Below are positions 9,682-56,070 of a DNA stretch of 64,000 nucleotides, one piece after another (position 1 is the first letter of the stretch; each line of letters opens with the position of its first letter). A program made the position numbers and the translations under genes. Source of the stretch: Acidimicrobiia bacterium (GTDB lineage Bacteria; Actinomycetota; Acidimicrobiia; Acidimicrobiales; JANYDT01). The stretch is from NCBI GenBank assembly GCA_043720395.1, contig JAYSSR010000038.1:5689-69688 (forward strand), in the 5' to 3' direction. The notes below the pieces were generated by a model, which saw nothing but the letters and a program-made list of their open reading frames with translations, was not told the DNA's origin and searched no databases.

Positions 9682-9687
9682 GCATCG

Positions 9688-18197: not shown

Positions 18198-18274
18198 CGG
18201 GATGTAGCGCAGCTTGGTAGCGCGCCACGTTCGGGACGTGGAGGCCGGGGGTTCAAGTCCCCCCATCCCGACCA
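18198..18274 (+). tRNA. tRNA-Pro (anticodon CGG), CCA encoded
   Basis: Hand-folded cloverleaf. Acceptor CGGGATG/CATCCCG, D-stem GCGC/GCGC, anticodon stem CCACG/CGTGG with loop TTCGGGA, T-arm GGGGG-TTCAAGT-CCCCC, discriminator A, then CCA. Confidence 0.9.
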
Positions 18275-37660: not shown

Positions 37661-37686
37661 GGTCAACCAACGCATCCAGCAGGTCG

Positions 37687-39891: not shown

Positions 39892-40808
39892 CCACCACCG
39901 CTCGTGACGAAATCGCGGCTACTCGGGATAATGTTCGCGGCCGACTCGCTGCCCGGCACAACGTCGTGTTGGAACAGGACCGCCGTCCGGTCAGGGGCGC
40001 ACCCCAACGCAGTTCAGAAGGAAATCGCAGGATGGTCGAGGTTCGTCGGGTCCGGGTGCTCAACTCATGGGTTGAGACATTCGACTCAGAATCTTTTCTT
40101 GCCACGATCAGTCGACATGTCGCCTCGGGCGAGCAGGTCGTGGTGGCCAATCACAACGTGAACAGCCTCACAATTTTTCAGCATGACGAAAAGTTCCGCG
40201 AGTTCTTTGACATCGCGCAGCATTGTTTCGTGGACGGAATGGGTGTGCTCGCGATCTCGAGGCTGGAGGGCACCGGGGTCAGGGCGGTCAATCGCATCGC
40301 CGTTCTCGACTGGATCTGGCGGCTCCTCGCACTTGCCGAGCAAGGCGGGTGGCGGGTAACCCACCTTGGTTCCACCCCGGACACGATCGCCGCCGCTTCT
40401 CAAAAGATCCTGGCCGAGCGGCCGCAACTCGAACTCACGATGCTGGACGGCTTCTTCGACCACCAACGCGATTCCGAGGGCAACCACGCCCGTCTCGACG
40501 ACCTGAGGGCGGCGGCACCCAACATTTTGCTAGTCGGTATGGGTATGCCACTTCAGGAACACTGGCTCGTTGAAAATTTGGGTGAATTGCCCAACTGCGT
40601 GATCATCACCGTCGGCGGGATCATGGGCTTCCTCGGCGGTGACCGCAAGACCCCTCCTCGCTGGATGGGACGTCTCGGAATCGAGTGGCTCTTTCGTGTC
40701 GCTACCGAGCCACGCCGATTGACCCGCCGGTACACCGTCGAACCCCTCGAGTTGGCACCGGTGATTGGACACCATGTCGCCGAACGTCTGCGGCGGCATC
40801 AGCGATGA
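39888..40808 (+). CDS. WecG/TagA/CpsF-family (GT26) glycosyltransferase
   Basis: VVVANHNVNSLTIFQ...CFVDGMGVL...ILLVGMGMPLQEHW...TVGGIMGFLGG...EWLFRVATEPRRL. The ATG overlaps the upstream stop (ATGA). The ATG at 40032 is an alternative. Confidence 0.8.
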   Translation: MTTTARDEIAATRDNVRGRLAARHNVVLEQDRRPVRGAPQRSSEGNRRMVEVRRVRVLNSWVETFDSESFLATISRHVASGEQVVVANHNVNSLTIFQHDEKFREFFDIAQHCFVDGMGVLAISRLEGTGVRAVNRIAVLDWIWRLLALAEQGGWRVTHLGSTPDTIAAASQKILAERPQLELTMLDGFFDHQRDSEGNHARLDDLRAAAPNILLVGMGMPLQEHWLVENLGELPNCVIITVGGIMGFLGGDRKTPPRWMGRLGIEWLFRVATEPRRLTRRYTVEPLELAPVIGHHVAERLRRHQR

Positions 40809-40888
40809 TCTCGGCACAATGAAGGTGCGACCCCCGATTGAGTCCGCGGCCCCTTGACCAGGCACGCCCCAACTGTGAAGCTGGCTTC

Positions 40889-42724
40889 ATGACCACGAAG
40901 AGCGGCGAATCGTCGCGGCGAATCGTCGCGTTGACGCTGATCGCCACCCTCTGCGCTTGTCAGTCTGCTGCGCACGCTGCTACGGCAACGACCACCGCGA
41001 GCCCGACAACGACCCGGCCAATCGGCACTTCGCCCACGGCACGAACCCGAGTGATTGCGCCGACGACCGCCCTTCGACCGAGTCCAGTTAGGCCCACCAC
41101 AACAGGCGTGGGCCTCAAGGGGACAGCAACGACAACGAAAGGCCAGCCCCCAACCACCACCATCGCCAAGGGACGCGTCACTACAACGACGTTGCTGAGC
41201 GTTTCGGCAACACCGACCACGCGAAGGACTCGGATCACGGTCCGACCAATCGCTCCGCCGAAACCGACCGCCGCGACCGTTGCCGACGCGTCCGTCACGG
41301 TCGCAGCCGCGCGTCGAAAGCGGGACGCAAAGGCACTCATAGCGGGTTTGAGGATGCTCGGCCTGCGACTCCTGGAGGCGAAACGTCCGGCCGAATCCGC
41401 CACAGCATTGCGCGAAGCCGTTGGTCTGCTCAACGCGCCGGGCGACCTCCTCGAACGCCGCGAAACCGAGGCAACCCTTGGATGGGCGTTGAACACCGCG
41501 GGCGACTTCAAAGGTGGCGTCACAGTCCTGCAAGACGCGCTCCGCCTCGGCGACGAGCAGCGTGCGACACAACCGGTCATGGTCAACATCTTGAAACTTC
41601 TCGTTTGGGGCGCACGCGCGAGCAGTGACCACGAGTCGGCCGTCAATGCGCTTGAACGACTGCGTGACTTTGGCGAAAAAGGCGATAGCACGATTGATCT
41701 TGGCGACACCTATGAGGGACTTGCGGTCGAACGGCTCCTCATGAAGTCCGTCGGTCCGGCGGTCTCCTATGCACGAAAAGCCGTCGCCGCTCGTGCCAAC
41801 GCCAAACCAGTCGTGCTCGCCGGTTCATATCAGGTGTTGGGATGGGCGCTCGACAGCATGGATTCCTCCCCGGAGGCGATTCAGGCGCTAAAGAAGTCCA
41901 TCGACTTGCGCCGCCAGGCTGGCGTCGCCGCTTCGGAGAACCTCGAAGCACTCCTACTCCTGGCCAATTCTGCCCGCAAGGCGGGTGACGCAGACACGAG
42001 CTTCACCGCTCGCCGTGACGTCATTCAGATAGCGCGAGACAGAGGCGATGCTCCTGCGCTGGCCGACGGCCTCGACGAACTCGGGCTCGCCGCGCTGCTG
42101 CTGCAACGCCCGCAAATCGCCGTACCGCCGCTTACCGAAGCCGTAGCGCTGCGTCGCTCGTCTGGTGCCAGCGTGGCGTTCGGTCGATCACTGCACCTGC
42201 TTGGCTGGGCGCTCTCCGGCAGCGGACGCAAAGATGAAGCTGTTGGCACGTACAACGAAGCTGCGGAAATCCGCCGTCAGGTCGGCGACACCCGCGAGGT
42301 GCAGCTTGAATCACTTCGCGCTCTCGGCTACCTACTTTGGGAATTGAAGCGCGGGAACGAGGCCATTCCGCCCTTTGAGCGCTCCCTTGCGTTGGTGAGA
42401 AAGGACCCATCAGATGCTCCCTCGGAGGCGGCTGCGTTGACGGATCTCAGCGTTGCCTATCTCATTGGCTCAATCCCGGACAAGGCCTTGGAACCAGCAC
42501 AAACCGCCATCGATCTCTTCGAGCGAATCGACAAAAAAGGCGAGGCCCTTGCTGCGGCGTTGTATGCATATGGCTGGGCCTTGTTCAGCAATGCTCGCCA
42601 AAAGGAGGCCATCGATCCATTTCGTCGGTCACTCGCGATCCGCGAAGCGGCGGGCAGCGCAAAGATCGACGAAACACGATCGTTCCTCCAGGCAGCCATC
42701 GAATCGAGCGGGCCAGGGGGCTGA
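40889..42724 (+). CDS. Secreted/lipoprotein-like TPR-repeat protein with Thr/Pro-rich N-terminal linker
   Basis: Signal-like IVALTLIATLCAC, ~150 aa of Thr/Pro-rich sequence, then about 10 TPR-like repeats (recurring A..L..LG.AL...G....A......A..I motifs). Confidence 0.6.
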   Translation: MTTKSGESSRRIVALTLIATLCACQSAAHAATATTTASPTTTRPIGTSPTARTRVIAPTTALRPSPVRPTTTGVGLKGTATTTKGQPPTTTIAKGRVTTTTLLSVSATPTTRRTRITVRPIAPPKPTAATVADASVTVAAARRKRDAKALIAGLRMLGLRLLEAKRPAESATALREAVGLLNAPGDLLERRETEATLGWALNTAGDFKGGVTVLQDALRLGDEQRATQPVMVNILKLLVWGARASSDHESAVNALERLRDFGEKGDSTIDLGDTYEGLAVERLLMKSVGPAVSYARKAVAARANAKPVVLAGSYQVLGWALDSMDSSPEAIQALKKSIDLRRQAGVAASENLEALLLLANSARKAGDADTSFTARRDVIQIARDRGDAPALADGLDELGLAALLLQRPQIAVPPLTEAVALRRSSGASVAFGRSLHLLGWALSGSGRKDEAVGTYNEAAEIRRQVGDTREVQLESLRALGYLLWELKRGNEAIPPFERSLALVRKDPSDAPSEAAALTDLSVAYLIGSIPDKALEPAQTAIDLFERIDKKGEALAAALYAYGWALFSNARQKEAIDPFRRSLAIREAAGSAKIDETRSFLQAAIESSGPGG

Positions 42725-42862
42725 CGTGGTTGTCTCGCGTCCTTCGCCCATTTCCTTGAGGACCCGTAACGAAACAACGTGCGCGCACACTGATCGACAG
42801 CGCCGTGCGCGACACGGGTACGGAGATTTGGGCGCGCAAGTAGTTACGTTCCGTGCCCTCCC

Positions 42863-44260
42863 GTGATGGAACGCGGCAAGCGCTACACACAGCAGCGTCG
42901 AGCGCCAGGTCTGCGCCCGGGCCGTCACTCGCGCCAACGTAACCTCGCGCATGACACGGGCTGGTCCGCTGCAATCCAGGTCATGCGGCTCCTGGCCTCG
43001 CTCGCCACCTTTATTGCGTTTCGCATCACCATCGGAAACGGCCAATATGGCCCATTTGCCGGTGTCCAAGGCCTTGTCGTGCTGTCGAGCCTCCTTGGCT
43101 GCTTCTGGCTCCCGCAACTGGCCTTGCAGCGCGTCTTACGCGACCAGGTCTCAATCCAGTCGATGGCCACGAGGGCCATTTCACTTGCGGTCGTCGGCGG
43201 TGCTGTTTCGTTTGCCGCCATCATGGTGTCCGGGCGGATCTTTTTGCCGACAATTCCCCGACTCGCGCTCGCTGGGCTAGGACTGGCCGAGATCGCCGCA
43301 GCGATTCTCATCGAGATGCCTGCATCACTGATGCAGGCGAAGCGCGGGTTCGCTGCCTCGGCGCGAACCCGTCTGGTCACTCCCACCTGTCGACTCGTTG
43401 CCGTCGCGTTGGCGATTTTGACCTCGGTAGACACTCTGCAACGGTTCGCCGTTTTGGTCGCGGCGACACTCATACCCGCTGCCCTCGTCAGTGCCTTTGT
43501 CACCTTCCGCCGACTCGGGATACGGCCCTCGTTCGGTCCGTTCCTCGGTTCAGACGTGGTCGGCGGGCTTTCGTATTCAGTGATTGGTGGGCTCTACGTG
43601 ATTCAGGACGATGGCGACAAGACCATGCTGGTTTCCGCGGGATTCGATATCGACGCGGGACGGTATGCAGCGGCCTATCGACTTCTCCAGATCGCGATGT
43701 TCCCCATCAATGCCTTTGTTGCGGCAACCCATGGTCGGTTCCTCCAGTTCCGAGGAACAGACCCGCCGCGCGCCCGGCTTCGTCGAGCAGCCCGATTCGC
43801 GGCCCCGACGCTTGCCTATTCAATATTCGCAGCGGGCTTCGTCTTTGCGGCGGCTTCTCCCCTTGCTTCGCTCATGGGGATCGAGGGAGACGCCGTAATT
43901 TTCCGGTGGCTTTGCCTACTCCTCCCACTGCGCTGCACCGCAGAATTCGCGCTCAATGGACTGCTCGGACTCGGGCGGAACTGGATTCGCGTTGCGATCG
44001 TTGGAGTCTCCGGGTTCAGTAATGTCGCCATCAACCTCGCCTTCATTCCATCACATTCTTGGAAAGCCGCGGCCGCCGCCACGTTAATTGCCGACTCGCT
44101 CCTGACCGTAATCGCTTGGCTCGCGCTGGCCGTGCTGAGCCGGGGTCGATGGAATCAGTCGTTCACGCGGGCGGCGGAACCGGACCGTTCGGCCCGGACG
44201 GTATCGCCAGGCCGACCGAGGCGACGTTGGGGTGTGCGGCCTCGTCACGGGAGACCGTGA
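42863..44260 (+). CDS. Polysaccharide flippase (Wzx/MOP superfamily-like), polytopic membrane protein
   Basis: About 12 hydrophobic helices and a size and composition typical of oligosaccharide flippases. No sharp motif seen. Start uncertain. Confidence 0.6.
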   Translation: MMERGKRYTQQRRAPGLRPGRHSRQRNLAHDTGWSAAIQVMRLLASLATFIAFRITIGNGQYGPFAGVQGLVVLSSLLGCFWLPQLALQRVLRDQVSIQSMATRAISLAVVGGAVSFAAIMVSGRIFLPTIPRLALAGLGLAEIAAAILIEMPASLMQAKRGFAASARTRLVTPTCRLVAVALAILTSVDTLQRFAVLVAATLIPAALVSAFVTFRRLGIRPSFGPFLGSDVVGGLSYSVIGGLYVIQDDGDKTMLVSAGFDIDAGRYAAAYRLLQIAMFPINAFVAATHGRFLQFRGTDPPRARLRRAARFAAPTLAYSIFAAGFVFAAASPLASLMGIEGDAVIFRWLCLLLPLRCTAEFALNGLLGLGRNWIRVAIVGVSGFSNVAINLAFIPSHSWKAAAAATLIADSLLTVIAWLALAVLSRGRWNQSFTRAAEPDRSARTVSPGRPRRRWGVRPRHGRP

Positions 44261-44309
44261 GTTCCCCACCCCCAGTGACCTCCCCACCCACACACCCAGG
44301 GAGTTCGAG
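44259..44309. repeat. C-tract element related to the 24-nt G-tract repeat family (inverted orientation, degenerate)
   Basis: GAGTTCCCCACCCCCAGTGACCTCCCCACCCACACACCCAGGGAGTTCGAG lies directly after the wzx stop. Compare the reverse complement of the repeat unit, AGTTTCCCGCCCGCCCACCCAGTG. Confidence 0.5.
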
Positions 44310-44354
44310 AGGCGGATGCGGGGCAGCGCAAGGGATCACGAGTACACACTCGCG

Positions 44355-45623
44355 TCAGTGATGTGGCCGGGCACTGGGACGCGCATTGCGATAGACCGCA
44401 GACACGAGAAGCACCACGATCGCCCATCCGCCGTTGAGGAACGGCTCGCTTTCGGCTAGCGCCGTAGTCATGAGGCCGATGATGATGAGGGGCATCCACG
44501 CTCCCTTGCGTTCCCGTCGCAACCACGAAACCGAGCGGAGCAATGCGCCACCCAAGACGCAGAGGATTCCGACGAGACCGACCATCCCGAGTTGCAACCA
44601 GAAGTCCAAATACCCCTGATGTGCGTGGTACGCCCGAAACCCGGTCGCCGACCAGATCCTCACGCTCGCAGGGGTGGCGTCGTCCCAGATTCCGCCGAAG
44701 CCATGGCCTATCCACGGCCTGCGACCAATGGCCTGGACAACGGCGGACCAGATCCGGGTACGACCTGTAAACGTCGCGTCTCGTCCAAACACGCTCGTGA
44801 GTAGGGCGGGGTCGATGAAGAAGAGGCTCAGGCCGAGCAACACCCCGAGCAAAGCCGACAGGACGACGACGCTTCGGCGTAGGCCACGGGGGATCGAGCG
44901 GAACGCGCCGAAGAACGACGCGACACCGGCGACGACCACGAACGCGGCGACCGCAGTCGAAGATTGACTCAGCGCCACGAGTCCAATTGCCGCCGACGCC
45001 CAAAGCTTCCAACGACCACGGCCCTCCGTCACCAACACCACGAAGGCCATCCAGGCAAACATGCCGAGCGCGTTCTTGTGCTGGAACGAGCAGCGAAACC
45101 CGGGCGCGCCGTCGAGCGCAGTCCGACTAGCCCAGCCCGGCGCTACAACGATCTCGATGTAGCAGAGGGCGATAACCGCCCGAGCAAACTGCGCGAGCTT
45201 CGGCAGCAGGCGTTCGTTTGGTAGTAGCGCCCCGGCCGACCAGCCGATGAGCGACATCATGAACAGGGCGAGAACCCGCTTCCTGGAAGCTTGAACATCC
45301 ACCGACCAAACAATGGAGAGAAGTGCCCAGCCACAAAGAAACATCAGCGATATGGGGAGTCGGAGGTGTCGAAGCACGGACGCTGGCGTCGAAATAAGAG
45401 CGGCCAGAGCCATCGCAGTCACAACAAATCGGAGTAACCCGAGCTTACCGTGATCGGGAATAAGCAAGACCGACGGGGCAACCAAACAAAAAAGCTGGGC
45501 GATCCGAGTTTCCTTTCGACGGCCGACCAGGTCCTTCTCCCAATCTCGATTGTCTGGAAACAGGGGAACTGCCAGTCTCGCAGGGTTCGTCAAAAGAGGT
45601 CCCCGGTGTGAGATCTCGTTCAC
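44355..45623 (-). CDS. O-antigen ligase/polymerase (Wzy/WaaL-like) polytopic membrane protein
   Basis: About 10-12 TM helices with a large loop (FGGIWDDATPASVRIWSATGFRAYHAHQGYLDFWLQLG resembles the Wzy_C/O-antigen ligase loop). I chose the GTG at 45623, 7 nt after the upstream stop. The track ORF start at 46115 overlaps the PCP gene. Confidence 0.6.
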   Translation of the reverse strand: MNEISHRGPLLTNPARLAVPLFPDNRDWEKDLVGRRKETRIAQLFCLVAPSVLLIPDHGKLGLLRFVVTAMALAALISTPASVLRHLRLPISLMFLCGWALLSIVWSVDVQASRKRVLALFMMSLIGWSAGALLPNERLLPKLAQFARAVIALCYIEIVVAPGWASRTALDGAPGFRCSFQHKNALGMFAWMAFVVLVTEGRGRWKLWASAAIGLVALSQSSTAVAAFVVVAGVASFFGAFRSIPRGLRRSVVVLSALLGVLLGLSLFFIDPALLTSVFGRDATFTGRTRIWSAVVQAIGRRPWIGHGFGGIWDDATPASVRIWSATGFRAYHAHQGYLDFWLQLGMVGLVGILCVLGGALLRSVSWLRRERKGAWMPLIIIGLMTTALAESEPFLNGGWAIVVLLVSAVYRNARPSARPHH

Positions 45624-45630
45624 GTGCCTA

Positions 45631-47076
45631 TCAGGGCCGATTGATGATCGGGAAGATCGACTTTTGGTCGAAGGTCGGCGAAGTCGTGAGGTTGCGGAGG
45701 CGATCACAAACCTGGGTCGGAATCGGCACGACGACAACGATGAGATCCACGTGCGCCGCAAGCGCGACCGCAGCGGGACTTGCCGCGATGCCACCATCAA
45801 AGACCACGATGTCTGCGAGCGAACGTGCCCCCTCAACCAATCGCCCCGTTGCCTCGTAGGAAACCGCACCCGACGGTGCCGACTCCGAATCAGCGGGGAG
45901 AAAGAGAATTTTGTGGCCCTGCACCTCACGAACGAAGCGAAACTCAACCCCTTTGCCCTGATCGGCGAGAACCCGGCCGAGACCAGGCAGGCCGCTGGCA
46001 CCCAGCAGCGTCGTCGTGTGCGCGTTCTCCAAATTGGCGTCCACCAATAAAACCGATGCGTTCGTGCCCTCGAAGGAAGCCGCGAGGGCCCGAGCAATCG
46101 TCGATGTACCCGCACGCTCCTCGGAACTTGTCACCAGTACGGTGAAATGCTCACCCTTCATCCGGCCGATGATGAGCGAGGACATGTGGGCGAAATCGCG
46201 CTCGAAGGAGCTTGGCGAAGCACCCGTAGCGGTCGCGGGGAAAAAGGGCCGATCACCGAGCTGGCGAGCGTGGTGGATCTCCGTGAGGACGGGACGCCCG
46301 AGCATCTCCTCGGCCTGAGGGCGCGAGAGAACTCGCGGGCGGCCGAGCGCAGCCAGCGCAAGGATGACAAACGAGCCGAGCAGACCACCCCCAATCGCTG
46401 ACGCCAACAAGGCCGTGACCGCCGGACGGCCACCGCCGGAGAGGGCGTGCGGGGAGTCCAGCACCTGAACTGGCACATCGCGACTCGCGGTTCCGAACTC
46501 CACCTCGGTCTTGCTGGTAATCAACGCGTCGTACTCCTGCAGAAGCACCGCTCGCCGCGTGGTGGCATTTGACGTCGTGTCATCCTCAAGAATTCCGCTC
46601 AGAGCATCGAGATCGTCGAGTACCTGGGTAATTCGCGCGTCGATCGCCGTGGTCGACGCCACCGCACTCTGCGTCCGAATCTTCTGTCGGATCTCATTGA
46701 ACGACGTGACCAGCGCCTTGCCAATTTGCACGCCGATGGCCGTGGAATCGCTCTTGATCGTGATGTCGATGACGTCCGTTCGTGGTCGTTGCACGACACC
46801 TATCGACGTCTGAATTCCTGTGGCGGTCGTCCCAGGGACCTTTGCGGCGATCAATTTCGCGAGCTCGTCGCTCTGTAGCACTCCTATCTGGGTCTGCACA
46901 AACCGGTCGGGATCGGCTATGTCATTCGTCGGACGGGCGATCAGCATCGAAAGGCCCGCAGCCGACCCGTCATTGAACAGACCCAAAGCCAACAGTACGT
47001 TCGGACCCATTACGATCGCGAACAACAGAAAGGCGGCGCGTCTGCGCAAAATGCTGATAATGGTGCTGAGTTCCAT
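45631..47076 (-). CDS. Polysaccharide co-polymerase (Wzz-like) fused to a degenerate BY-kinase/ParA-like domain
   Basis: N-terminal TM, a periplasmic coiled region and a second TM (LLGSFVILALAAL), then a CpsD/Etk-like domain with VLVTSSEERAGTSTIA, VLLVDANL and DIVVFDGG. Confidence 0.7.
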   Translation of the reverse strand: MELSTIISILRRRAAFLLFAIVMGPNVLLALGLFNDGSAAGLSMLIARPTNDIADPDRFVQTQIGVLQSDELAKLIAAKVPGTTATGIQTSIGVVQRPRTDVIDITIKSDSTAIGVQIGKALVTSFNEIRQKIRTQSAVASTTAIDARITQVLDDLDALSGILEDDTTSNATTRRAVLLQEYDALITSKTEVEFGTASRDVPVQVLDSPHALSGGGRPAVTALLASAIGGGLLGSFVILALAALGRPRVLSRPQAEEMLGRPVLTEIHHARQLGDRPFFPATATGASPSSFERDFAHMSSLIIGRMKGEHFTVLVTSSEERAGTSTIARALAASFEGTNASVLLVDANLENAHTTTLLGASGLPGLGRVLADQGKGVEFRFVREVQGHKILFLPADSESAPSGAVSYEATGRLVEGARSLADIVVFDGGIAASPAAVALAAHVDLIVVVVPIPTQVCDRLRNLTTSPTFDQKSIFPIINRP

Positions 47077-47105
47077 ACGTGCTCCGAAGAAGTAAGTTGA
47101 AAATA

Positions 47106-50100
47106 CTACGTGCGCTTAGTTCGTCGCTGTAGTTCGTTCGACTCAATGTGAGATTCAAGCAACTCAGCAAGCTGAGGAAGGTTTTTCGGTGCGATCATCG
47201 AAAAGTGGTCGCCCGGAGCGTCCCGAACCTCGAACGTGCCAACGATGTTGGCCGCAAGGCCGTATCCCTCCGGGTACGCCGGCCATTCGGTAGCTGCACG
47301 TGCGAGCAAGACATTCACCCTGTAGATGCCCATTTCGTGAAGGTCGTACGCACGCTTGAAGTCGAGCTCCGCTGCGACTTCCGCCGTTGCATCATGGAGT
47401 TCATCGGCAGGCACCCCCGACTGCCGCGAAAACCTGCGGTCCAACACCCCTCGTGCCCATGGCATCACTGCGACCGGACCTCGTCTCCACAGGTTCCGGG
47501 CCACATTACGCAACTTGGCACCGATCGGCGGATTGAACCCGCGTGGAGGCACGGTGTCGAGGAGGATAACCGAGACAACATCGCGAGCGCGTTTGCGGAG
47601 TTCCTCAGCCATTTCGAGAGCGATGACGCCGCCACCGGAATATCCAGCAAGGAAGAACGGTCCCTCCGGCTGAACTTCCATCAATCGGGACGCGTACCGT
47701 TGTGCCATAGCGGAAATGCTTGCGTCGGCAAACCCACCGATAACCCAATTCGCCTGATAGCCGTACACGCTTCGATCGCCCCGCAAGGCGCGGGCAAGGA
47801 GCCGGAGCCCGACGAGATTGCCTCCTGCGCCGTGCACCATGTGCAGTGGAGTGGTCGTCGAATTCCGTCCCTCACGCAGCGTGATTGCAACCGACAGGTC
47901 CAGTGCCCGTTCCGGGGAGCGAAGAACGGCGAATGCGTTCGGGCTTGGGGCGATCACCAGCATCGGAAGCGAGGCAGTGCCTCCCAGCTCCCGACGGATG
48001 CGCGCCAACAGCCGTAAGCCCAGCAGTGAGTGGCCCCCGGCTTGGAAGAAGTCCGTATTCTCATCGGCAGCGGGGTCCCCGAGGACGTCGCGCCACAGCA
48101 GCGTAAGTCGCTCAAGGTCTGGCGCGCCGGTTGTCTCTGGCGATGTCGTGTTGACGAGGTGCCCTCCGTGTTCGACGGCACCCGATCTGGCCACGTCCGC
48201 TCGGCCAAGCACGGATTCGGCCCCAGCATGTGTGGACGCAGACTCCGGCTCACCAATAGTCACCAGGATCGCGTCGAAGCCGCTCGTCGAGGCGTGAACC
48301 AGCGCGCTACGAGCACGACTGGCCGTCATGGCGAGCGGTGCCGCCGCCGGGCTTGTCCATACGTCGCGAACTCGCCTCAGTTCACATCCCCTGAATACGG
48401 CGATCACCCCGTCGGCGTCGACTAGTCGAAGGTCGAAACAAACGAGGTCTGTGGTCATTTCACGCCGTCGGATCACAACATCGAACGCACCCTCGACGGG
48501 GCGGAACACCTCGACCGACGCAAACTGGGCCGGAACCCAAAATCCGACGGCAGCGCCTACGGAACCTTCCAGCCCAAGAGCGAGTGCCAAATCAAGGGCC
48601 GCCGGGTGCACGATCCACGACGAGTGCTCCGCGGCATACGACGCAAGAACAACTCGACCGAAGTCACGGTCCGACGAGCCTTGGACGTTCGCATTCCAGT
48701 GAGGCCCGACTACGAGCGAGCGGGTTTGATTTCTGAACACGTCAACGACTTCGAAGTCCGACGCAGCCCGAATCTCCGAGCCGTCGTAGGAATCGCCGAG
48801 GTCGTCGGTCGGCGGTGCGGCCACAATCGCCTGACTGTGCAGCGTCCACGTGTCGCCACCGGCCGGACGCCCCTCAACCCGCACAGCGCGGATGTCGCGG
48901 TCTGGCGGATCGAGGACGGCCCGAACCTCGACGACGACGTCGTCGTCGCAGAGCAGCGGCTCGATGATCGTGACGTCGACGATGTGGCGCGACGCGGGGC
49001 CTTCGCCGAGCGCGGCGAGCATCAGTGCAATATGTGCGGTGGCAGGGAGGACGGCACGCTCCGCAATGCGATGCTCGTTCAAGATCCACGTCTCGGTAGG
49101 GAGCGCAGAACCCGAAAGGACGATGGACCCGTCGGCGAGGGCATCGCGAACGTTGAAGAACGGGTGCGAAATCGAAATCGAGCCATGGACCACAGGCGTG
49201 CTGGCCATGCCGCCATCGCAGAATCGTCCCCAAGCGATGGTCGCGATTCGCGACGACCCTCGGGCCCCTGCGAGCGCCTCGACAACCGCGTTAGCAGCGA
49301 TGTACGCAGCCTGGCCGGGGATGCCGAGCGTGGTGCTCGCCGAGCCGACGAGCTGCACCAACGTGTCCGGGCGACTCTCGGCGTACCCGACCAATCGTTC
49401 AGCGATCATGAGCTTCGCCGCCAGCACCGCCTCCACGTCGTCCTCGGTCAACTGAGCGAGGAGACGGTCATGAAGCACACCGACCGCGTGGACGACCGAG
49501 TCGAACTCACTCGTTCGCAGCACCGCATCCAATTCCTTCGCGTTCGCCGCATCGACCACGCGGAGACTCACGGTGCGGCCAGCTTCGGTGGCCAACGCTT
49601 CGAGCTGAGCAAGGCGTCGAAGACGCTGGGATTGCGGTTCAGCGGGACCGTGTGTTGCAAGCCATGCCGATGCGTCAAGCGGAAGTTCAGACCTGGTCGT
49701 GACCGCAACGTCAGAACCGCTGGCGAGAAGCGCGGCTGCGTGAATGGCACCGACGTGTCCGAGGCCACCGAGCACAAGGCCGCATCGCCGCGACACGGCG
49801 TCGGCATGGTCCGTCAAGTCAGCACCTGTGACGGTGCGTGTCCAGGCCCGCCGCTTCGCTCCGTCGTGCCCCACGCCGACAACGCCGACGATTTCCGGGT
49901 CCATCAGAAGATCAACAATCGGTCCCAACACGCCCGACGGGGGTTCCGTGGAACCGCCGGACGCAGCACTGGAATGGCTCGCGAGGTCCACCACGATCCC
50001 GGTCAGTCCCGGGTATTCCTGTGCGAGGACGCCGGTAACACCCGCCGCGGCCGCCAGCCCTGGGTTGGCCGCCGGTGATGTTGGACTCGGCCATGCTCCG

Positions 50101-53100
50101 ACCGTCAGCACCGCTAAGCGGCCGACACCTGTTTCCGTCCGCTCGAAGAGCTGATTCGCTGCCTGTGCGCAGCGCCGGACCAATGAGGCGGCAACGTGTT
50201 CGAGTTGACGATCCCCTCCTCGCGTCACGACAAGTGCGCCAGTAAGTGGTGCGTTGGGCATCTCCTCGCCGGAGTTCACAAGGTGGATGCCGCGACGTTC
50301 CAGAGCGATGGAGAGCGCAGCGGCCACCCGGTCGTCGGGCTCTGCGTCGAGTAGCCAAACTCCGGCATACGCCGCTGACTCCTGGGACACCACCGGTGTC
50401 CAGGTCGGAACCGACACGACGACGTCGTGCGACTTCGAAGCTCCTGATTCAGGCGCGTCCGGACTGGCCGCAGTTGTCGAGACCCCTGCGCTCGGTCGCA
50501 CGGGATCGATCCAGGCGCGGTGCCGGTCGAGGCGCGGTACGGGAAGGCGTACTCGACGAACTGACGCGTCGACGAGGCGCCTCGCGTCAAGGTTTGCGCC
50601 ATGGCACCAAAGCTGTGTGACGCCATGCAGCAACCCGGTGACGGCGTCGGCATCGATGCCTCCGAGAATTGGAATCACCGTCGAACTTGGCTCCAGCGTT
50701 CGAACTGCTGCGGTGAGTACTTTCCCCGGAGCGACCTCGATTCCGAGGAACGGGCCGTCTGTTGCCGCGGCCCGTACCGCATCGCTGAAGCGGACGGTGC
50801 CGCGCAGCTCGTCAACCCAATACGCAGCGTCGAGCAGACCATCGAATCGGCCACCGGTCTGTGTCGAGTAGAACGCGATCTCCGGACGCCTCTGCGTCGT
50901 GTCGTTCATCCGCGCTCGGAACGCATCGAGATGGTCGTCGAGTCCACGGAAATGGGCGGCCGCCGCGAGGTTGACCCGTCGACAGTCGATGTCCGCACTG
51001 CGCAAAGCGCGTTCGAACAGGTCAATATCGGAAGTCGCGCCCGAATACACCAGTTCGTCGGGAGCATTCACCACCGCCAGATCGAGCGCGTCCGAAAGGT
51101 ACGGCCGCAGTTCGGACGCGGAAGCGAACACGGCGATCATTGCGGCCCCAGACGCTCCCGAACGCACTGGGTGGGCGGGCGGGGAATTCGCTGGGCGGGA
51201 CGCGTTCGCAATCGCCTCGGCACGCGCTCCGATGCCAATCACCGCGTCGCGCAGCGTTGCCGCGCCTGCCGCAACAGCCGCCGCATGCTCACCCATACTG
51301 TGACCGAGCACCCCCGCTGGGGCGATACCCCAATCCACGAGCTGCCGGCTCAAGGCATACTCCGCAACAAACAACGCCGGGAGCCCGACCGCGGGGTTGC
51401 GCAGACGCTCATCGATCGCGTCATCGCGTCCTGCGCGGAGCAGATCGCCAAGGTCCAGTCCCAGTTCCGTCCGTGCGGCGGCCACGGCTTGCTCGACCGC
51501 GTCATTGAACGTCCGAAAGCGGGGACCGGGCGCTGCGAGCAGTTCCGAGATCATCCCCGAACGCTGTGGTCCGGCACCTGGGAAAAGGAACAGCACCCTT
51601 GCCGATTGACTCGCCTGTACTGGCTTGACTGCATCGAGACCGCGCCGAAGATCGTCGGACGACGACCCGATCACGCCAGCTCGCCAGGCGTGCGCCGAGC
51701 GGCCGACGCCAAACGTCGCAGCTACCTGCGCGGGTGTCGGCAAGGTCGGAGCGGGTGTCGCGATTGTCCTGCCGACTCGTTCGGCAAGGTTGCAAAGACT
51801 CTCCGCCGTGGGCGCCGAGATCAACAACACCGACGGGTCCACGATGCCACCAACGACCGCCGCGGCGTCGCTGGAAGCCGCGGCCTCCACCAACTCCCCG
51901 CCCGCCCCCCCGGTCAACTCCCCGCCCGCCCCCCCGGTGAACTCTTCGACGATCACGTGCGCATTCGTCCCGCCGACACCGAGTGACGTCACACCTGCGC
52001 GCCGAGGTGCGGGTGCGTCCCATACCTCGAGTTCCGTGACGATCCGAAGTCCAGCACCAGCAAGGTCGATGAGGGGATTCGGTTCGGAGAAGTTGGCCTG
52101 TGGCGTGATCGTCCGTCGACGCAGCGATTCAACGATTTTGATGAGACCCGCGATCCCGGCGGCCGTGTCGGCGTGGCCGATGTTCGCCTTGATCGATCCA
52201 ACGGCGGGCAAGGTGGCAGTTGGCTCGGCATCGCGGCGATCTCGCGTTTTCAGCGCCTCAGACAGGGACGCGAACTCAATCGGATCACCAAGTGCAGTTC
52301 CGGTGCCGTGCGCCTCAATGAGCGAGACCGACGATGCTTCGATGCCTGCGACCGACAAGGCCTCACGGACGACGTCGACTTGGCCCTCCACGCTCGGCGC
52401 GTAGTAGCTCACCTTTCGCTGACCGTCGTTGTTGATGGCCGTACCTCGGAGCACGGCGAGGATCGGATCGTTTGCGGCAACGGCGTCCTCGTAGCGGCGC
52501 AGCGTCACCAGGCCCGCGCCGCTGCTGAGGACCGTTCCGGTCGCACGAGCATCGAAGGGTCGGCAGTATCCATCCGCGCTGAGCACTTCGCCAGCGACGT
52601 AGCGGTAACCAGCGCGCACGGGCACCTCGATCGTCGCCGCCCCCGCGAGAGCGAGGTCACACTCGAACGAGAGCAAGGCCTGTACGGCGAGGTGCACGGC
52701 CGTCAACGAGGTCGAGCATGCCGTCTGCACGCTCAGCGCGGGGCCTCGGAGATCGAGCCGATACGCGAGAGTGGTAGCGGCGAAATCTTTGTCGTTGCCA
52801 AGGTGTCGTAATCCAAACCAGCCGAGGTCTCGAATCAGGTCGGGGCGGCTCAGCAGGTTACGGGCGAGATAGGTGTTGTAACCGACGCCGACATAGACGC
52901 CGACACCGTCACGGAGGCGCTCCAGCTGGTGCGTGCCGGATTCGAGGGCTTCCCACGCGAGCTCCAGCAGGTGACGAATCTGCGGATCGATAAGGGCCGC
53001 CTCGCTCGGCGCAATCCCGAATCGGGCGGCGTCGAAGAGTTCGGGGTCGGCGAGATCGCCACCGCGTCGGATGCGCTCGGGGTCGGCCAAGTCGTGCGGC

Positions 53101-53288
53101 TCAAGGCCTGCCGCGATCAGATCGTCAACGGTCAGATCTGCGATCCCCTCACGGCCCGAGGCCAGAAGGTCCCACAGCTCGTCGGTATCGCGAGCACCAG
53201 CAAAGCGACCGGACATCCCGGTAATCGCGATTGCCCCCTCGAAGTGTTCAGAACCAGAGTTCACTGGGTGGGCGGGCGGCGAACTCAA
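47106..53288 (-). CDS. Type I polyketide synthase, single module KS-AT-KR-DH-ACP-TE (2060 aa)
   Basis: KS: IAITGMSGRFAG, VQTACSTSL, EAHGTGTALGDPIE, GSIKANIGHADTAAG. AT: FLFPGAGPQRSGM, GHSMGE. KR: LVLGGLGHVG, GQAAYIAANA. DH: HPFFNV, LNEHRIAERAVLP, VHPAALDLAL. ACP: FFQAGGHSLLGL. TE: MVHGAGGN, GYSGGG, PGDHFSM. The listed start is TTG at 53288; GTG at 53264 is an alternative. Confidence 0.9.
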   Translation of the reverse strand: MSSPPAHPVNSGSEHFEGAIAITGMSGRFAGARDTDELWDLLASGREGIADLTVDDLIAAGLEPHDLADPERIRRGGDLADPELFDAARFGIAPSEAALIDPQIRHLLELAWEALESGTHQLERLRDGVGVYVGVGYNTYLARNLLSRPDLIRDLGWFGLRHLGNDKDFAATTLAYRLDLRGPALSVQTACSTSLTAVHLAVQALLSFECDLALAGAATIEVPVRAGYRYVAGEVLSADGYCRPFDARATGTVLSSGAGLVTLRRYEDAVAANDPILAVLRGTAINNDGQRKVSYYAPSVEGQVDVVREALSVAGIEASSVSLIEAHGTGTALGDPIEFASLSEALKTRDRRDAEPTATLPAVGSIKANIGHADTAAGIAGLIKIVESLRRRTITPQANFSEPNPLIDLAGAGLRIVTELEVWDAPAPRRAGVTSLGVGGTNAHVIVEEFTGGAGGELTGGAGGELVEAAASSDAAAVVGGIVDPSVLLISAPTAESLCNLAERVGRTIATPAPTLPTPAQVAATFGVGRSAHAWRAGVIGSSSDDLRRGLDAVKPVQASQSARVLFLFPGAGPQRSGMISELLAAPGPRFRTFNDAVEQAVAAARTELGLDLGDLLRAGRDDAIDERLRNPAVGLPALFVAEYALSRQLVDWGIAPAGVLGHSMGEHAAAVAAGAATLRDAVIGIGARAEAIANASRPANSPPAHPVRSGASGAAMIAVFASASELRPYLSDALDLAVVNAPDELVYSGATSDIDLFERALRSADIDCRRVNLAAAAHFRGLDDHLDAFRARMNDTTQRRPEIAFYSTQTGGRFDGLLDAAYWVDELRGTVRFSDAVRAAATDGPFLGIEVAPGKVLTAAVRTLEPSSTVIPILGGIDADAVTGLLHGVTQLWCHGANLDARRLVDASVRRVRLPVPRLDRHRAWIDPVRPSAGVSTTAASPDAPESGASKSHDVVVSVPTWTPVVSQESAAYAGVWLLDAEPDDRVAAALSIALERRGIHLVNSGEEMPNAPLTGALVVTRGGDRQLEHVAASLVRRCAQAANQLFERTETGVGRLAVLTVGAWPSPTSPAANPGLAAAAGVTGVLAQEYPGLTGIVVDLASHSSAASGGSTEPPSGVLGPIVDLLMDPEIVGVVGVGHDGAKRRAWTRTVTGADLTDHADAVSRRCGLVLGGLGHVGAIHAAALLASGSDVAVTTRSELPLDASAWLATHGPAEPQSQRLRRLAQLEALATEAGRTVSLRVVDAANAKELDAVLRTSEFDSVVHAVGVLHDRLLAQLTEDDVEAVLAAKLMIAERLVGYAESRPDTLVQLVGSASTTLGIPGQAAYIAANAVVEALAGARGSSRIATIAWGRFCDGGMASTPVVHGSISISHPFFNVRDALADGSIVLSGSALPTETWILNEHRIAERAVLPATAHIALMLAALGEGPASRHIVDVTIIEPLLCDDDVVVEVRAVLDPPDRDIRAVRVEGRPAGGDTWTLHSQAIVAAPPTDDLGDSYDGSEIRAASDFEVVDVFRNQTRSLVVGPHWNANVQGSSDRDFGRVVLASYAAEHSSWIVHPAALDLALALGLEGSVGAAVGFWVPAQFASVEVFRPVEGAFDVVIRRREMTTDLVCFDLRLVDADGVIAVFRGCELRRVRDVWTSPAAAPLAMTASRARSALVHASTSGFDAILVTIGEPESASTHAGAESVLGRADVARSGAVEHGGHLVNTTSPETTGAPDLERLTLLWRDVLGDPAADENTDFFQAGGHSLLGLRLLARIRRELGGTASLPMLVIAPSPNAFAVLRSPERALDLSVAITLREGRNSTTTPLHMVHGAGGNLVGLRLLARALRGDRSVYGYQANWVIGGFADASISAMAQRYASRLMEVQPEGPFFLAGYSGGGVIALEMAEELRKRARDVVSVILLDTVPPRGFNPPIGAKLRNVARNLWRRGPVAVMPWARGVLDRRFSRQSGVPADELHDATAEVAAELDFKRAYDLHEMGIYRVNVLLARAATEWPAYPEGYGLAANIVGTFEVRDAPGDHFSMIAPKNLPQLAELLESHIESNELQRRTKRT
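47154..47861 (-). other. PKS thioesterase domain (approximate)
   Basis: aa ~1810-2045. GYSGGG (GxSxG), LLDT, GDHFSM. Confidence 0.75.
47904..48125 (-). other. PKS acyl carrier protein domain (approximate)
   Basis: aa ~1722-1795. GGHSLLGLRLLARI phosphopantetheine-attachment Ser motif. Confidence 0.8.
48369..49166 (-). other. PKS hot-dog (PS-DH-like) domain located after the KR (approximate)
   Basis: aa ~1375-1640. HPFFNV, HxxxExxxxP (LNEHRIAERAVLP), HPAALDLAL. Confidence 0.6.
49224..50411 (-). other. PKS ketoreductase domain including structural subdomain (approximate)
   Basis: aa ~960-1355. RLAVLTVGAWP...GLTGIVVDL (psi-KR-like), GGLGHVG Rossmann motif, and Tyr in GQAAYIAANA. Confidence 0.7.
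50709..51599 (-). other. PKS acyltransferase domain (approximate)
   Basis: aa ~564-860. GHSMGE nucleophile and a downstream AAAHF region. Interrupted by a repeat-derived insertion at aa 698-716. Confidence 0.75.
51165..51190 (+). repeat. G-tract repeat copy A (CACTGGGTGGGCGGGCGGGGAATTCG) inside the AT-coding region
   Basis: Seen directly. On the coding (minus) strand it encodes NSPPAHPVRS. Confidence 0.9.
51891..51938 (-). repeat. Two tandem inverted-orientation copies of the 24-nt unit (plus-strand CAACTCCCCGCCCGCCCCCCCGGT x2) in the KS-AT linker coding region
   Basis: Exact 24-nt tandem duplication. The reverse complement ACCGGGGGGGCGGGCGGGGAGTTG matches 20/24 positions of copy A. Encodes TGGAGGEL twice. 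Confidence 0.9.
51948..53237 (-). other. PKS ketosynthase domain (approximate)
   Basis: aa ~18-447. Active-site Cys in TACSTS, His in EAHGTG and IGHADTA. Confidence 0.8.
53262..53287 (+). repeat. G-tract repeat copy B (CACTGGGTGGGCGGGCGGCGAACTCA) spanning the PKS start region
   Basis: Seen directly. On the minus strand it encodes SSPPAHPVN at PKS residues 2-10. Confidence 0.9.
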
Positions 53289-53297
53289 AATGCCTGA

Positions 53298-53867
53298 TCA
53301 GCTCGTTCGGAAGTTTTCAAAATAACGACTCGGAGTCGGTCCTCGCTGGCCCTGATACTTGGAGCCCAGAGCAGACGAGCCGTACGGGTTATCAGCAGGA
53401 GATGTCATTCGAAGAAAGCTGATCTGGCCAATTTTCATACCCGGGTACAACGTGATCGGCAGGGTGGCCGCATTGCTCAATTCCAGCGTGATGTGCCCAT
53501 CAAAGCCTGGATCGATGAAGCCTGCCGTGGAATGAATCACGAGACCTAATCGTCCAAGGCTCGATTTGCCCTCGATCCGGGCCACAAGGTCGGCCGGCAC
53601 GGCAATCCTCTCAGCGGTCGCGCCCAGTACGAACTCACCGGGGTGGAGAATGAACACGTCGTCCTCACCGATCTCGATGAGTTCAGTGAGATCTTCCTGA
53701 TTCTCTTTGACGTCGATAACGGCAGTCGTGTGATTGCGAAACACGCGAAAATATCGATCGACTCGAAGGTCGATCGACGATGGCTGGATGTTCGCCGGTT
53801 CAAACGGGTCAACCACAATTCGCCCCGCGGCAATCTCTTCGCGAAGCGTCCGGTCGGAGAGGATCAT
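53298..53867 (-). CDS. dcd: dCTP deaminase (dCTP deaminase/dUTPase family)
   Basis: [12 protein letters not shown]...[10 protein letters not shown]...[31 protein letters not shown] are classic Dcd motifs. Confidence 0.9.
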
Positions 53868-53931
53868 GGGGGGAGAGTCCAGAGTTGGCGGACCAGACGT
53901 TCAGGCCACGGGACCACGCAGCGTAGTAGGT

Positions 53932-54003
53932 CACTGGGTGGGTGGGCGGGAAACTCACTGGGTGGGCGGGCGGGAAACTCACTGGGTGGGTGGCGGGGAG
54001 CCC
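53932..54003 (+). repeat. 3 x 24-nt tandem G-tract repeats (CACTGGGTGGGYGGGCGGGAAACT)
   Basis: Copies start at 53932, 53956 and 53980; the third is degenerate (CACTGGGTGGGTGGCGGGGAGCC). Each unit contains GGGTGGGCGGGCGGG, four G3 tracts with 1-nt loops. Intergenic, upstream of dcd. Confidence 0.9.
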
Positions 54004-54016
54004 GTCGAAGCGCCAC

Positions 54017-54074
54017 GGCTCGCACACCCGACGAAGTCGCGGCGGCTCGCACACCCGACGAAGTCGCGGCGGCT
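54017..54074 (+). repeat. 2 x 27-nt perfect tandem repeat (GGCTCGCACACCCGACGAAGTCGCGGC) plus a partial third unit
   Basis: Copies at 54017-54043 and 54044-54070, then GGCT. Abuts and overlaps the stop codon of the GH16 gene at 54073. Confidence 0.9.
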
Positions 54075-56070
54075 ACAACGGTGCGTAGACCCGAACCCAG
54101 TCGACCAGTACCGTCGCCGGGAAGTCGGCCAACGATGGCGGTCCCGGCCATTCGCCACCGACGGATTGGTTGATGATCACGTAGAACGGCTTGTCGAACG
54201 GGGCCGTGCCGCCAGGAACCCGGTAGCTATGGACCAGAACGTCATCGACGTACCACCGGATGATCCCCGCCTCCCACTCGATCGCGTACCGGTGCCACTC
54301 CGACGCCGGACTCGCAAGATCGGCACCGGCGGACGACGCTTTGTGGGAACCGCTTTCCCCCCAATGAATCGTATGGAAGACCGTCTGCGGGGGCTTGGCG
54401 ACGTACTCCATGATGTCGATTTCGCCGCTATTCGGCCAACCCCCGTAGGCCGCGTCTGCCGGCATGAGCCAGAACGCGGGCCACGTGCCTTTCGCGAGCG
54501 GCAGCTTCATGCGCGCCTCGAAACGTCCGTACGTCTGCGCAAATTTTCGACGTGTGGTCACGAGCCCGCTGACCCAGGCACGGTTTGACCCATTGCAGGT
54601 GGCGGATTTCGGCTGGGCGGTGAGCTGCAAGGAACCACCAGCGACGACGCTCTGCTCGGAGCGATAGCACTCGAGACCGAACGTGTCGTCGAAGTCACCT
54701 GCACCGGTCGTGACGGCGGTCCAGTCGGCACCGAGCCCGTCTGTGAACTCGTCGGACCAGGTCAACACCCGCGGACCCACCGGAAGCGAGGTCGTGGTTG
54801 AGGATGGGGCCGCCGTCGCGGACGTTGTCGATGTGGACGTAATGGACGTGGTCGCTGGCACCGTCGACGTGGAGGCTGGCACCGTCGACGTGGAGGCTGG
54901 CACCGTGGACGCTGGCACCGTGGACGTGGTCGACGTGGCGGAAGGCGCTGTCGTTGTGGAGGCTGTCGTTGTGGAGGCTGTCGTCGTGGAGGCTGTCGTC
55001 GTCGCGGTGGGTGTCGGCGTCGTTGTCGTCGCCGCGGTCGGTCTCGACGTACTCGTGCCGGTCGCCGTCGCGGTCGTGGTCGTGACGCCGGGGGTCGCGG
55101 CGGTGAGGTTGGGTGGGGCCGGACTCGTGGTCGGAGCAAGGGTCGGCCGTGCAGACACCGTCGTTGCGGTCGTCGCCGTCGTGGTGATGGTCGGTGATCC
55201 GAGCAACTTCGGGACTGACGTGGATGTTGTCGCCGAAACCGTGACGGATGACGGCGCCAAGACATTCGCACCACTCGCGCCAACGCGCAACGCCGTGGTG
55301 GACGCCGTCGTGCTGGTCGACGTCGTGCTGGTGGGTGTCGTGAGCGGAACCGAGGCCGGGGTCAAGGTTTCTTGAACTGCGGCGAGTTCGGCAACACCGG
55401 TGGACCATGTCAGGTCCTCGCTGTCACCCGCTGTGGCCGAGCGGGGTTCCGCAACTGTCGAGACGGGTTCCGCAGTCGTCGGGACGGTTTCATCGGCCGT
55501 CGCAACCGGTTCCACACTCGTCAAGACGGGTTCTTCGCCACCCCGCCCACCAGGGACCTCGATCCAGTCAAACCAGACATCCGCCAAGTCGAATCGGACG
55601 GCGTTTGCACCCGCTCGAAGCGGGAGGACGACGGCGACGGTGGACCAACTATCGGGCGAGGCGAGGTAGCGGACGCCGCCCGCCACGGCAACGTCGTTTA
55701 CCGAAATCGTTCTCGTCACTGCACCCGTCGTTCGAAACCTGACGGACATCACAACTTCGCCTGCTACAAGCGCCGAAACGATGCACGTCGCCGAACCCGT
55801 TCCCTCGGTGCCCGAGCCGAAGACGGCAGATCCCTCCAAGCCGGATGGATTCACCGAACTCGACGCCACCACGCCCGTGAGCGTGCAGTCCTCAACTTGG
55901 ACGCGCGCAAGAGTCATGGTGTCGACCGGCCGGGCGGGCAACGACACGAGGGGTTCGATCTGATCGACCGAGTTCGCCCCGGAACCGCTCGAGAGAAGCA
56001 GCGCAGGCAGAGACCCGAGCGCGATGGCCACGACTGCGGCAAGAGCGGCGGCCTGCGAACGACGTGTCAC
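54073..56070 (-). CDS. Secreted GH16 glycoside hydrolase with N-terminal CBM6/35-like module and a ~200-aa Thr/Ser/Pro/Ala linker
   Basis: Signal/TM AAALAAVVAIALGSLPALLL, a lectin-like N-domain and a long T/S/A/P linker. The C-terminal domain has LTWSDEFTD, the catalytic SGEIDIMEY (ExDxxE) and IINQSVGGEWPG. Confidence 0.8.
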   Translation of the reverse strand: MTRRSQAAALAAVVAIALGSLPALLLSSGSGANSVDQIEPLVSLPARPVDTMTLARVQVEDCTLTGVVASSSVNPSGLEGSAVFGSGTEGTGSATCIVSALVAGEVVMSVRFRTTGAVTRTISVNDVAVAGGVRYLASPDSWSTVAVVLPLRAGANAVRFDLADVWFDWIEVPGGRGGEEPVLTSVEPVATADETVPTTAEPVSTVAEPRSATAGDSEDLTWSTGVAELAAVQETLTPASVPLTTPTSTTSTSTTASTTALRVGASGANVLAPSSVTVSATTSTSVPKLLGSPTITTTATTATTVSARPTLAPTTSPAPPNLTAATPGVTTTTATATGTSTSRPTAATTTTPTPTATTTASTTTASTTTASTTTAPSATSTTSTVPASTVPASTSTVPASTSTVPATTSITSTSTTSATAAPSSTTTSLPVGPRVLTWSDEFTDGLGADWTAVTTGAGDFDDTFGLECYRSEQSVVAGGSLQLTAQPKSATCNGSNRAWVSGLVTTRRKFAQTYGRFEARMKLPLAKGTWPAFWLMPADAAYGGWPNSGEIDIMEYVAKPPQTVFHTIHWGESGSHKASSAGADLASPASEWHRYAIEWEAGIIRWYVDDVLVHSYRVPGGTAPFDKPFYVIINQSVGGEWPGPPSLADFPATVLVDWVRVYAPL
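54854..55006 (-). repeat. Tandem coding repeats in the GH16 linker (21-nt GCTGGCACCGTCGACGTGGAG units, then 15-nt GCTGTCGTYGTGGAG units x4)
   Basis: Seen directly. Encodes STVPASTSTVPAS... and TTTAS x4 low-complexity linker sequence. Confidence 0.85.

Follow-up and report, generated by a model that had tools for sequence, protein, structure and literature searches.

The 64-kb window analysed here, the whole stretch of DNA from an uncultured Acidimicrobiia-like actinobacterium, carries a type I polyketide synthase (PKS) gene in which the linker between the ketosynthase (KS) and acyltransferase (AT) domains holds a 48-nt feature at 51891-51938. On comparison of the sequences, this feature reads as a 24-nt G-tract unit, specific to the lineage, that was recently duplicated in tandem and in frame. 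Units of the same family lie in and around the same gene in both orientations, and by analogy the feature resembles in its behaviour a coding minisatellite whose unit is a short dispersed repeat. The gene and the parts of its linker are as follows.

47106 to 53288, minus strand: type I PKS gene with KS-AT-KR-DH-ACP-TE domains (Pfam), 2060 aa from a TTG start.
51891 to 51938, minus strand: tandem pair of exact 24-nt units, ACCGGGGGGGCGGGCGGGGAGTTG twice on the gene-sense strand, encoding PKS residues 451-466.
51939 to 51946, minus strand: the 5' flank GAGTTCAC of the first linker unit, which recurs as GAGTTGAC and GAGTTGGT after each unit.
51834 to 51890, minus strand: a further 57 nt of linker, VEAAASSDAAAVVGGIVD, encoding residues 467-485, found in the window lineage only and absent from the ortholog locus (L001).

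On the plus strand CAACTCCCCGCCCGCCCCCCCGGT occupies 51891-51914 and again 51915-51938 with zero mismatches, just as an initial annotation of this DNA had reported. No match to the duplication arose in dinucleotide-preserving shuffles (0/100), and Tandem Repeats Finder (TRF) delimits the array as 51891-51944 with a period of 24, 2.2 copies and 96% matches. A short direct repeat, GAGTT(C/G), brackets the duplicated unit. The PKS frame here reads GTNAHVIVEE-F-TGGAGGEL-TGGAGGEL-VE, so that the Gly-rich stretch does follow directly on the KS C-terminus, as had been proposed. The pair has attributes of a coding-region variable-number tandem repeat (VNTR) or minisatellite: its units, above the 10-nt minimum of that class, stand head to tail, and each is 24 nt, or 8 codons, and leaves an intact open reading frame (ORF) of 2060 aa with all six domains. 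As to copy number, the linker has one unit in L001 and two in the window, and both assemblies of the window's strain are identical. For the extra 57 nt of linker, a search for a donor returned only chance-level matches of at most 14 nt.

An error of assembly, the outcome that would have removed the duplication altogether, is unlikely, because the 48-nt duplication is shorter than a sequencing read and because an independent Logan assembly of SRR23617227 (L051; one contig, 2 samples) is 100% identical to window positions 37106-54045, duplication included.

The linker unit belongs to a small family with the consensus TCAC-TGGGTGGGCGGGCGGG-RAAYTC, in which four G-runs separated by single-base spacers are set between short conserved flanks. 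Its loci in the window, including the linker pair as matched by the family profile, are these.

44257 to 44306, minus strand: degenerate pair of units flanked by convergent genes, at 49-98 nt past the stop codon of the Wzy_C gene.
51160 to 51204, plus strand: opposite-orientation copy with a partial second unit in an AT domain loop, encoding NSPPAHPV (profile match 51160-51190, 1 unit).
51892 to 51943, minus strand: profile match to the linker pair, 2 units, in the KS-AT linker.
53257 to 53287, plus strand: copy at the very start of the PKS frame, covering codons 3-10 (SPPAHPVN) if TTG 53288 is the start.
53928 to 54001, plus strand: tandem array of three 24-nt units in the dcd upstream spacer.

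An nhmmer profile built from all copies recovers 9 units at these 5 loci in both orientations, with E-values from 2e-8 to 5e-3, and no further window match below E=1. Three loci are on the plus strand and two on the minus strand, and 3/5 are within the PKS reading frame. For the core GGGNGGGCGGG the window gives 10 occurrences (0.62 expected), all of them between 51169 and 53974. When a profile was made from the five plus-strand copies only, the linker copy was its best non-training window match (nhmmer E=0.048), and the same profile uncovered the two degenerate units at 44257-44306. After reverse complementing, the linker unit agrees with 51166-51188 at 20/23 positions, which sustains the earlier view that the linker units are inverted copies of the element noticed at 51165; the inverted linker repeat is 80% identical to 51165-51199 over 35 nt and also has an inverted-repeat match to 53928-53974. 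Taken with its flank GAGTTCAC, the linker unit matches 53256-53282, inverted, at 24/27 positions (89%), the flank itself matching the copy at 53257 at 8/8. The element is thus present in both orientations within one gene, encoding SPPAHPV twice, N-terminally and in the AT loop, and a Gly-rich peptide in the linker. A profile scan of a further ~10 kb of flank from the same genome, bringing the coverage to ~74 kb, found no additional copies; all 5 loci fall inside 9.7 kb of this (P about 0.001 under uniform placement), so that the copies are tightly clustered and, as far as is visible in ~74 kb, not genome-wide.

The degenerate units extend over the stop codon of 42866..44260, a plus-strand gene, the TGA (44258-44260) lying within the TCAC flank of one unit; a short hairpin, TCACGG-TCTC-CCGTGA, then follows on the minus strand near these positions.

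The sequences concerned are G/C-rich and of low complexity, and the plus-strand-only profile reached the linker at just E=0.048, with a large composition-bias correction. Both facts would suit a reading in which the linker holds an unrelated G-rich low-complexity duplication that resembles the plus-strand element by coincidence, or in which the duplication is an assembly error. Such a coincidence would however have to produce the same 24-nt period, the flank shared between the linker and the 53257 copy and the agreement over the whole 27 nt, and to place all copies within 2.8-9.7 kb. The 18-nt core pattern CACTGGGTGGGYGGGCGG was sought in 185,579 species genomes and gave 49 scattered single matches, about chance level, of which 0/49 carry the family's 3' flank. 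With the artefact addressed by the Logan assembly, this reading is largely refuted, and we give it hardly any credence. Several of the core matches, in unrelated Actinomycetota and other genomes (L018, L021, L025, L030), have their own nearby GGGTGGGTGGGCGG repeats ~15-30 nt apart, and local amplification of G3N1-type motifs may occur in other lineages too.

The age of the feature is addressed by comparison with relatives. Among 5.8 billion proteins the PKS has one close relative only, P0002, with 73% identity; the remaining matches are at <=41% identity and come mostly from Acidimicrobiia-like metagenome bins. The P0002 locus is L001, which keeps the dcd-PKS synteny and encodes a Dcd 97% identical at the protein level. 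Alignment of the DNA reveals four differences that involve the family. L001 has one 21-nt three-tract unit in the linker, GCCGGGGTGGGCGGGGAGGTA (AGVGGEV), where the window has two exact 24-nt units and the additional 57 nt; the AT loop of the window is longer by a net 24 nt (NSPPAHPV); at the PKS start the window has 24 nt of additional coding sequence just after the shared TTG-AG start (SPPAHPVN); and the spacer ahead of dcd holds one three-tract unit in L001, TGGGTGGGCGGGGAGTTCAC, against three four-tract units in the window. Neither the AT-loop copy nor the PKS-start copy is found in L001. Since L001 has units in the linker and upstream of dcd, the family was present at these two sites in the common ancestor of both lineages, and the linker duplication, the amplification upstream of dcd and the two opposite-orientation copies are specific to the window lineage. 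The ortholog alignment that the initial annotation called for therefore bears out the linker duplication as lineage-specific, but the linker unit itself proves old. The two linker units are identical while the surrounding DNA differs by ~19% between the lineages, and on this ground the duplication is young or homogenised. A degenerate second unit (AGAPGAE), considered for the L001 linker, was dropped because the stretch is better aligned to the family's ancestral Pro/Ala linker. The next-nearest relatives, reached via dcd (86-91% identity; ~73 kb), contain no PKS, no element and no tight G-quadruplex (G4) motif, and with the PKS lacking they allow no further polarising of events. No tight G4 motif was found in L001 either.

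Structure prediction and alignment place the inserted segments in tolerant parts of the enzyme. From E449 to S491 (VIVEE to the invariant Ser of the next strand), the linker measures 41 aa in the window, 21 aa in P0002 and 18 aa (18-21) in 46 homologs, in which it is Pro/Ala-rich; the AT loop measures 27 aa in the window, 19 aa in P0002 and 13 aa in the 46 homologs. An AlphaFold2 model of PKS residues 1-930, the KS-AT region, has a mean predicted local distance difference test score (pLDDT) of 87.2 and a predicted TM-score (pTM) of 0.88, with pLDDT <50 only at residues 1-13, 291-296, 454-479 and 708-712; 3/4 of these segments coincide with element copies. All catalytic residues invariant in the family alignment are kept in the window PKS. 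Given the low pLDDT at the copies and the retention of the catalytic residues, the insertions sit in flexible loops of an apparently intact enzyme.

The explanation that we favour, and consider likely, combines duplication in a tolerant loop by slippage or unequal exchange, short-range copying from neighbouring units, and selection for frame-preserving events. In the linker, slipped-strand mispairing or unequal exchange between the GAGTT repeats would have produced the duplication, and a G-quadruplex on the G-rich strand probably favoured it. The new copies, 0.7-2 kb away, would have arisen by short-range copying from their neighbours (template switching or ectopic conversion) and not by genome-wide transposition. 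Only events that preserve the frame, 24 nt being 8 codons, would survive selection, and the peptides TGGAGGEL and SPPAHPV would be passengers, tolerated because they are located in flexible surface loops. The ancestry, recency and unit length of the copies and their location in loops are read directly from the comparisons above; the molecular mechanism is what we infer from them. Several points weigh against this explanation. The comparison of copy numbers rests on assemblies (the window, L051 and L001), and the direction of the insertions and deletions on a single close ortholog and on distant homologs of <=41% identity. Slippage accounts for the tandem arrays, not for the dispersed inverted copies, and where the alignment with L001 shows insertions at new sites, neither homology in the flanks nor a duplicated target is obvious. 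The copy scan covers ~74 kb only; the family may extend over the genome, and would then be a true mobile element, and a selected role for the longer and more flexible linker or for an RNA structure is likewise possible.

The two lineage-specific 24-nt insertions suggest that the element is mobile, and because they are at new sites and opposite in orientation to the ancestral linker copy, they invite comparison with an ultra-small mobile element: a 24-nt unit mobilised genome-wide in either orientation by some enzyme or by G4-triggered template switching, with the PKS copies as its in-frame survivors in loops. The conserved flanks TCAC ... RAAYTC around the G-tract and the fifth locus, 7 kb away between convergent genes, would be consistent with this. 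There is also a precedent in Nostocaceae, whose small dispersed repeats, or SDR (Elhai et al. 2008, cited through PMC2884548 and PMC5861425), are ~20 nt long and 'might be mobile'. They share with the present family units of ~20-27 nt that are sometimes tandem in varying number, insertion into conserved sequence and suspected mobility, but they are unrelated in sequence and taxon, and the family here has only 5 clustered loci in the ~74 kb scanned. In line with the SDR type, the unit is found at several loci in both orientations, and unit-length insertions occur in otherwise conserved sequence at PKS codons 3-10 and in the AT loop, although the immediate surroundings are themselves diverged. 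The strong clustering of the copies, and their lack in the other ~64 kb examined, are however not what genome-wide mobilisation would produce. The insertion boundaries are blurred, no target-site duplication is visible, and no transposase-like neighbour gene was noticed, though no systematic search for one was made. The family pattern is likewise absent from the 185,579 species genomes and from viral contigs (0 matches). In a metagenome collection the 25-nt family pattern gave 0 matches, a weak negative because the collection is without L001's own contig and hence without this lineage; when the pattern was made to include the L001-type unit, 54 singletons came up there, all unrelated, and that contig was not among them. 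On balance we regard such a mobile element as rather unlikely. Identity with REP/REPIN elements, which are palindromic hairpins outside genes, was rejected: the unit is not palindromic, folds weakly without G4 (-2 to -4 kcal/mol) and is intragenic at 3 loci.

The G-tracts of the element raise the question of a function in the message. The canonical G4 motif GGGGGGGCGGGCGGGG (four runs of >=3 G, loops of 1-7 nt) is found on the minus strand at two places, 51896-51911 and 51920-51935, each linker unit thus contributing one G3+N1G3N1G3N1G3+ motif to the mRNA. The 64-kb window has 8 G4 motifs, of which 5 are element copies. The earlier statement that the G-rich strand is the mRNA-sense strand, here also the non-template strand, is true at the linker only; the AT, PKS-start and dcd-upstream mRNAs carry the C-rich strand. 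With the G4 model of ViennaRNA, whose energies are a coarse approximation, two adjacent three-tetrad quadruplexes are predicted in the PKS message and dominate the local fold, so that an RNA G-quadruplex is predicted there. When 50-nt segments of the gene tiled every 25 nt were scanned for duplex formation (mean -42, sd 7 kcal/mol), the linker copy gave its two lowest predicted values, -70.7 and -61.3 kcal/mol, with the start-codon copy and the AT copy. No Rfam 15 family matches the element at gathering score, the sole match in the window being a tRNA at 18198-18271, and a simple scan for terminators and promoters was empty at the element.

These predictions could be read as a functional cis-element, in which RNA G4s pause ribosomes between KS and AT, or pairing of G-rich and C-rich mRNA segments tunes translation, or the Gly-rich linker is itself selected. 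The two sense-strand motifs, three-tetrad with 1-nt loops, and the two low-energy duplexes would agree with it, as would the complementarity of the linker to the 5' copy over the start codon, 1.3 kb upstream (89% over 27 nt), and to the AT copy (80% over 35 nt). Yet there is no conservation: the L001 linker has three G-tracts and L001 has no 5' or AT copy, and the function would have to be an entirely recent one. In the 46 homologs a Pro-rich linker of 18 aa suffices, and the G4 energies are those of a coarse model. Bacterial translation is moreover coupled to transcription and would unwind long-range RNA pairings. We hold a cis-acting role to be improbable, less so only than coincidence. About equally doubtful is a more speculative form of local spread, in which the G4 stalls replication or transcription and template-switch repair pastes a fresh unit nearby, in either orientation. 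If true, such a self-propagating G4 would amount to protein-independent spread of a very small repeat that sculpts enzyme linkers and makes complementary G- and C-rich sites in the mRNA, including one at the start codon, that potentially regulate the PKS.

The start of the PKS is itself placed differently by different gene models at 53215-53288. The NCBI model begins at Met25 and truncates the conserved KS N-terminus, and the Logan model starts at a GTG (53264) inside the element copy; TTG 53288 is orthologous to the L001 start codon and lies 9 nt after the dcd stop, a spacing that suggests translational coupling of dcd and the PKS. As Dcd is 97% and the PKS 73% identical between the two lineages, and as the loci of dcd homologs are without the PKS, the PKS seems to have been added downstream of dcd (53298-53867) within this clade only and to be evolving fast.

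Several further observations were made around dcd and in the rest of the window. A 27-nt tandem array (2.8 copies, CCCGACGAAGTCGCGGCGGCTCGCACA) at 54001-54074 directly adjoins the 24-nt array; one related copy of its unit is in L001, and the window lineage has thus amplified two neighbouring short units. Both arrays (window 53868-54072) lie exactly at the junction of a four-gene indel: L001 5235-9256 holds a run of four genes absent from the window (two hypotheticals besides cation efflux and F5/8 type C), placed between the GH16-like gene and dcd. The GH16-like ORF of the window, 54073..56070 (minus strand), is densely packed at 54845-55533 with overlapping tandem repeats of 15, 18, 21 and 30 nt, and it is much the longer, encoding 665 aa against 145 aa, as called, for its L001 counterpart. 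SelA and SelB, for selenocysteine incorporation, are encoded at L106 2736-5894 (about window 8320-11478). The window lies in a conserved actinobacterial rpsF-ssb-rpsR-rplI / PBP / MurJ neighbourhood, and its plus-strand GC skew is negative in 7/8 8-kb windows and 0.002 at 48001-56000.

The feature may be placed among known systems as follows. It has in common with coding minisatellites and VNTRs the head-to-tail units of a length that is a multiple of three, in a flexible and variable part of the protein, and a copy number that differs between lineages (1 vs 2 in the linker, 1 vs 3 upstream of dcd); it differs in that the unit is not private to the locus, being found also singly and in opposite orientation in and around the same gene. 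For repeats inserted in frame, the Rickettsia palindromic elements (RPE) are said to be the classic case; they were reportedly described by Ogata and colleagues in 2000 as 100-150 bp, palindromic and dispersed over the genome. In-frame insertion into coding genes, tolerated in surface regions, is shared with them, but the present unit is 24 nt and not palindromic (minimum free energy without G4, -2 to -4 kcal/mol). The Neisseria pilE G4, which Cahoon and Seifert are said to have reported in 2009, is reportedly conserved as a single element upstream of pilE, with a small-RNA promoter dedicated to it and a demonstrated role. It is held up as the classic example of local recombination driven by a G4. 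Likeness here lies in the G3-N1-type parallel G4 motif and in local recombination or gene conversion, and pilE offers a possible model for G4-driven short-range copying; the promoter and the demonstrated role are pilE's, whereas the present element is known from sequence. The G4-forming repeats GGGNATC and GGGGA(C/T)T of Xanthomonas and Nostoc were placed by Rehm et al. (2015, PMC4692102) mainly in intergenic DNA, either antisense and ahead of an ORF or in sense orientation directly past a stop codon. They too are G-rich with four G-tracts, and the intergenic loci 53928-54001 and 44257-44306 fit that placement, but here each 24-nt unit is a complete four-tract motif and 3 loci are in a reading frame. 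Overall, the Nostocaceae SDR (PMC2884548, PMC5861425) are the closest analogues, with these heptamer repeats also close.

In summary, the linker duplication reveals no new system or function, and what it documents is real repeat-driven evolution of a gene. It provides a natural example of a tiny G4-prone repeat that lengthens and rewrites the interdomain loops of a modular enzyme without breaking the enzyme. One DNA unit is tolerated in both orientations of a single frame, as Pro-rich SPPAHPV and as Gly-rich TGGAGGEL, and its copies pile up locally. For PKS engineering it marks three insertion-tolerant positions, namely the N-terminus, the post-KS linker and one AT loop, and for research on G4 and genome instability it offers a bacterial locus at which G4-linked duplication and short-range copying may be tested.

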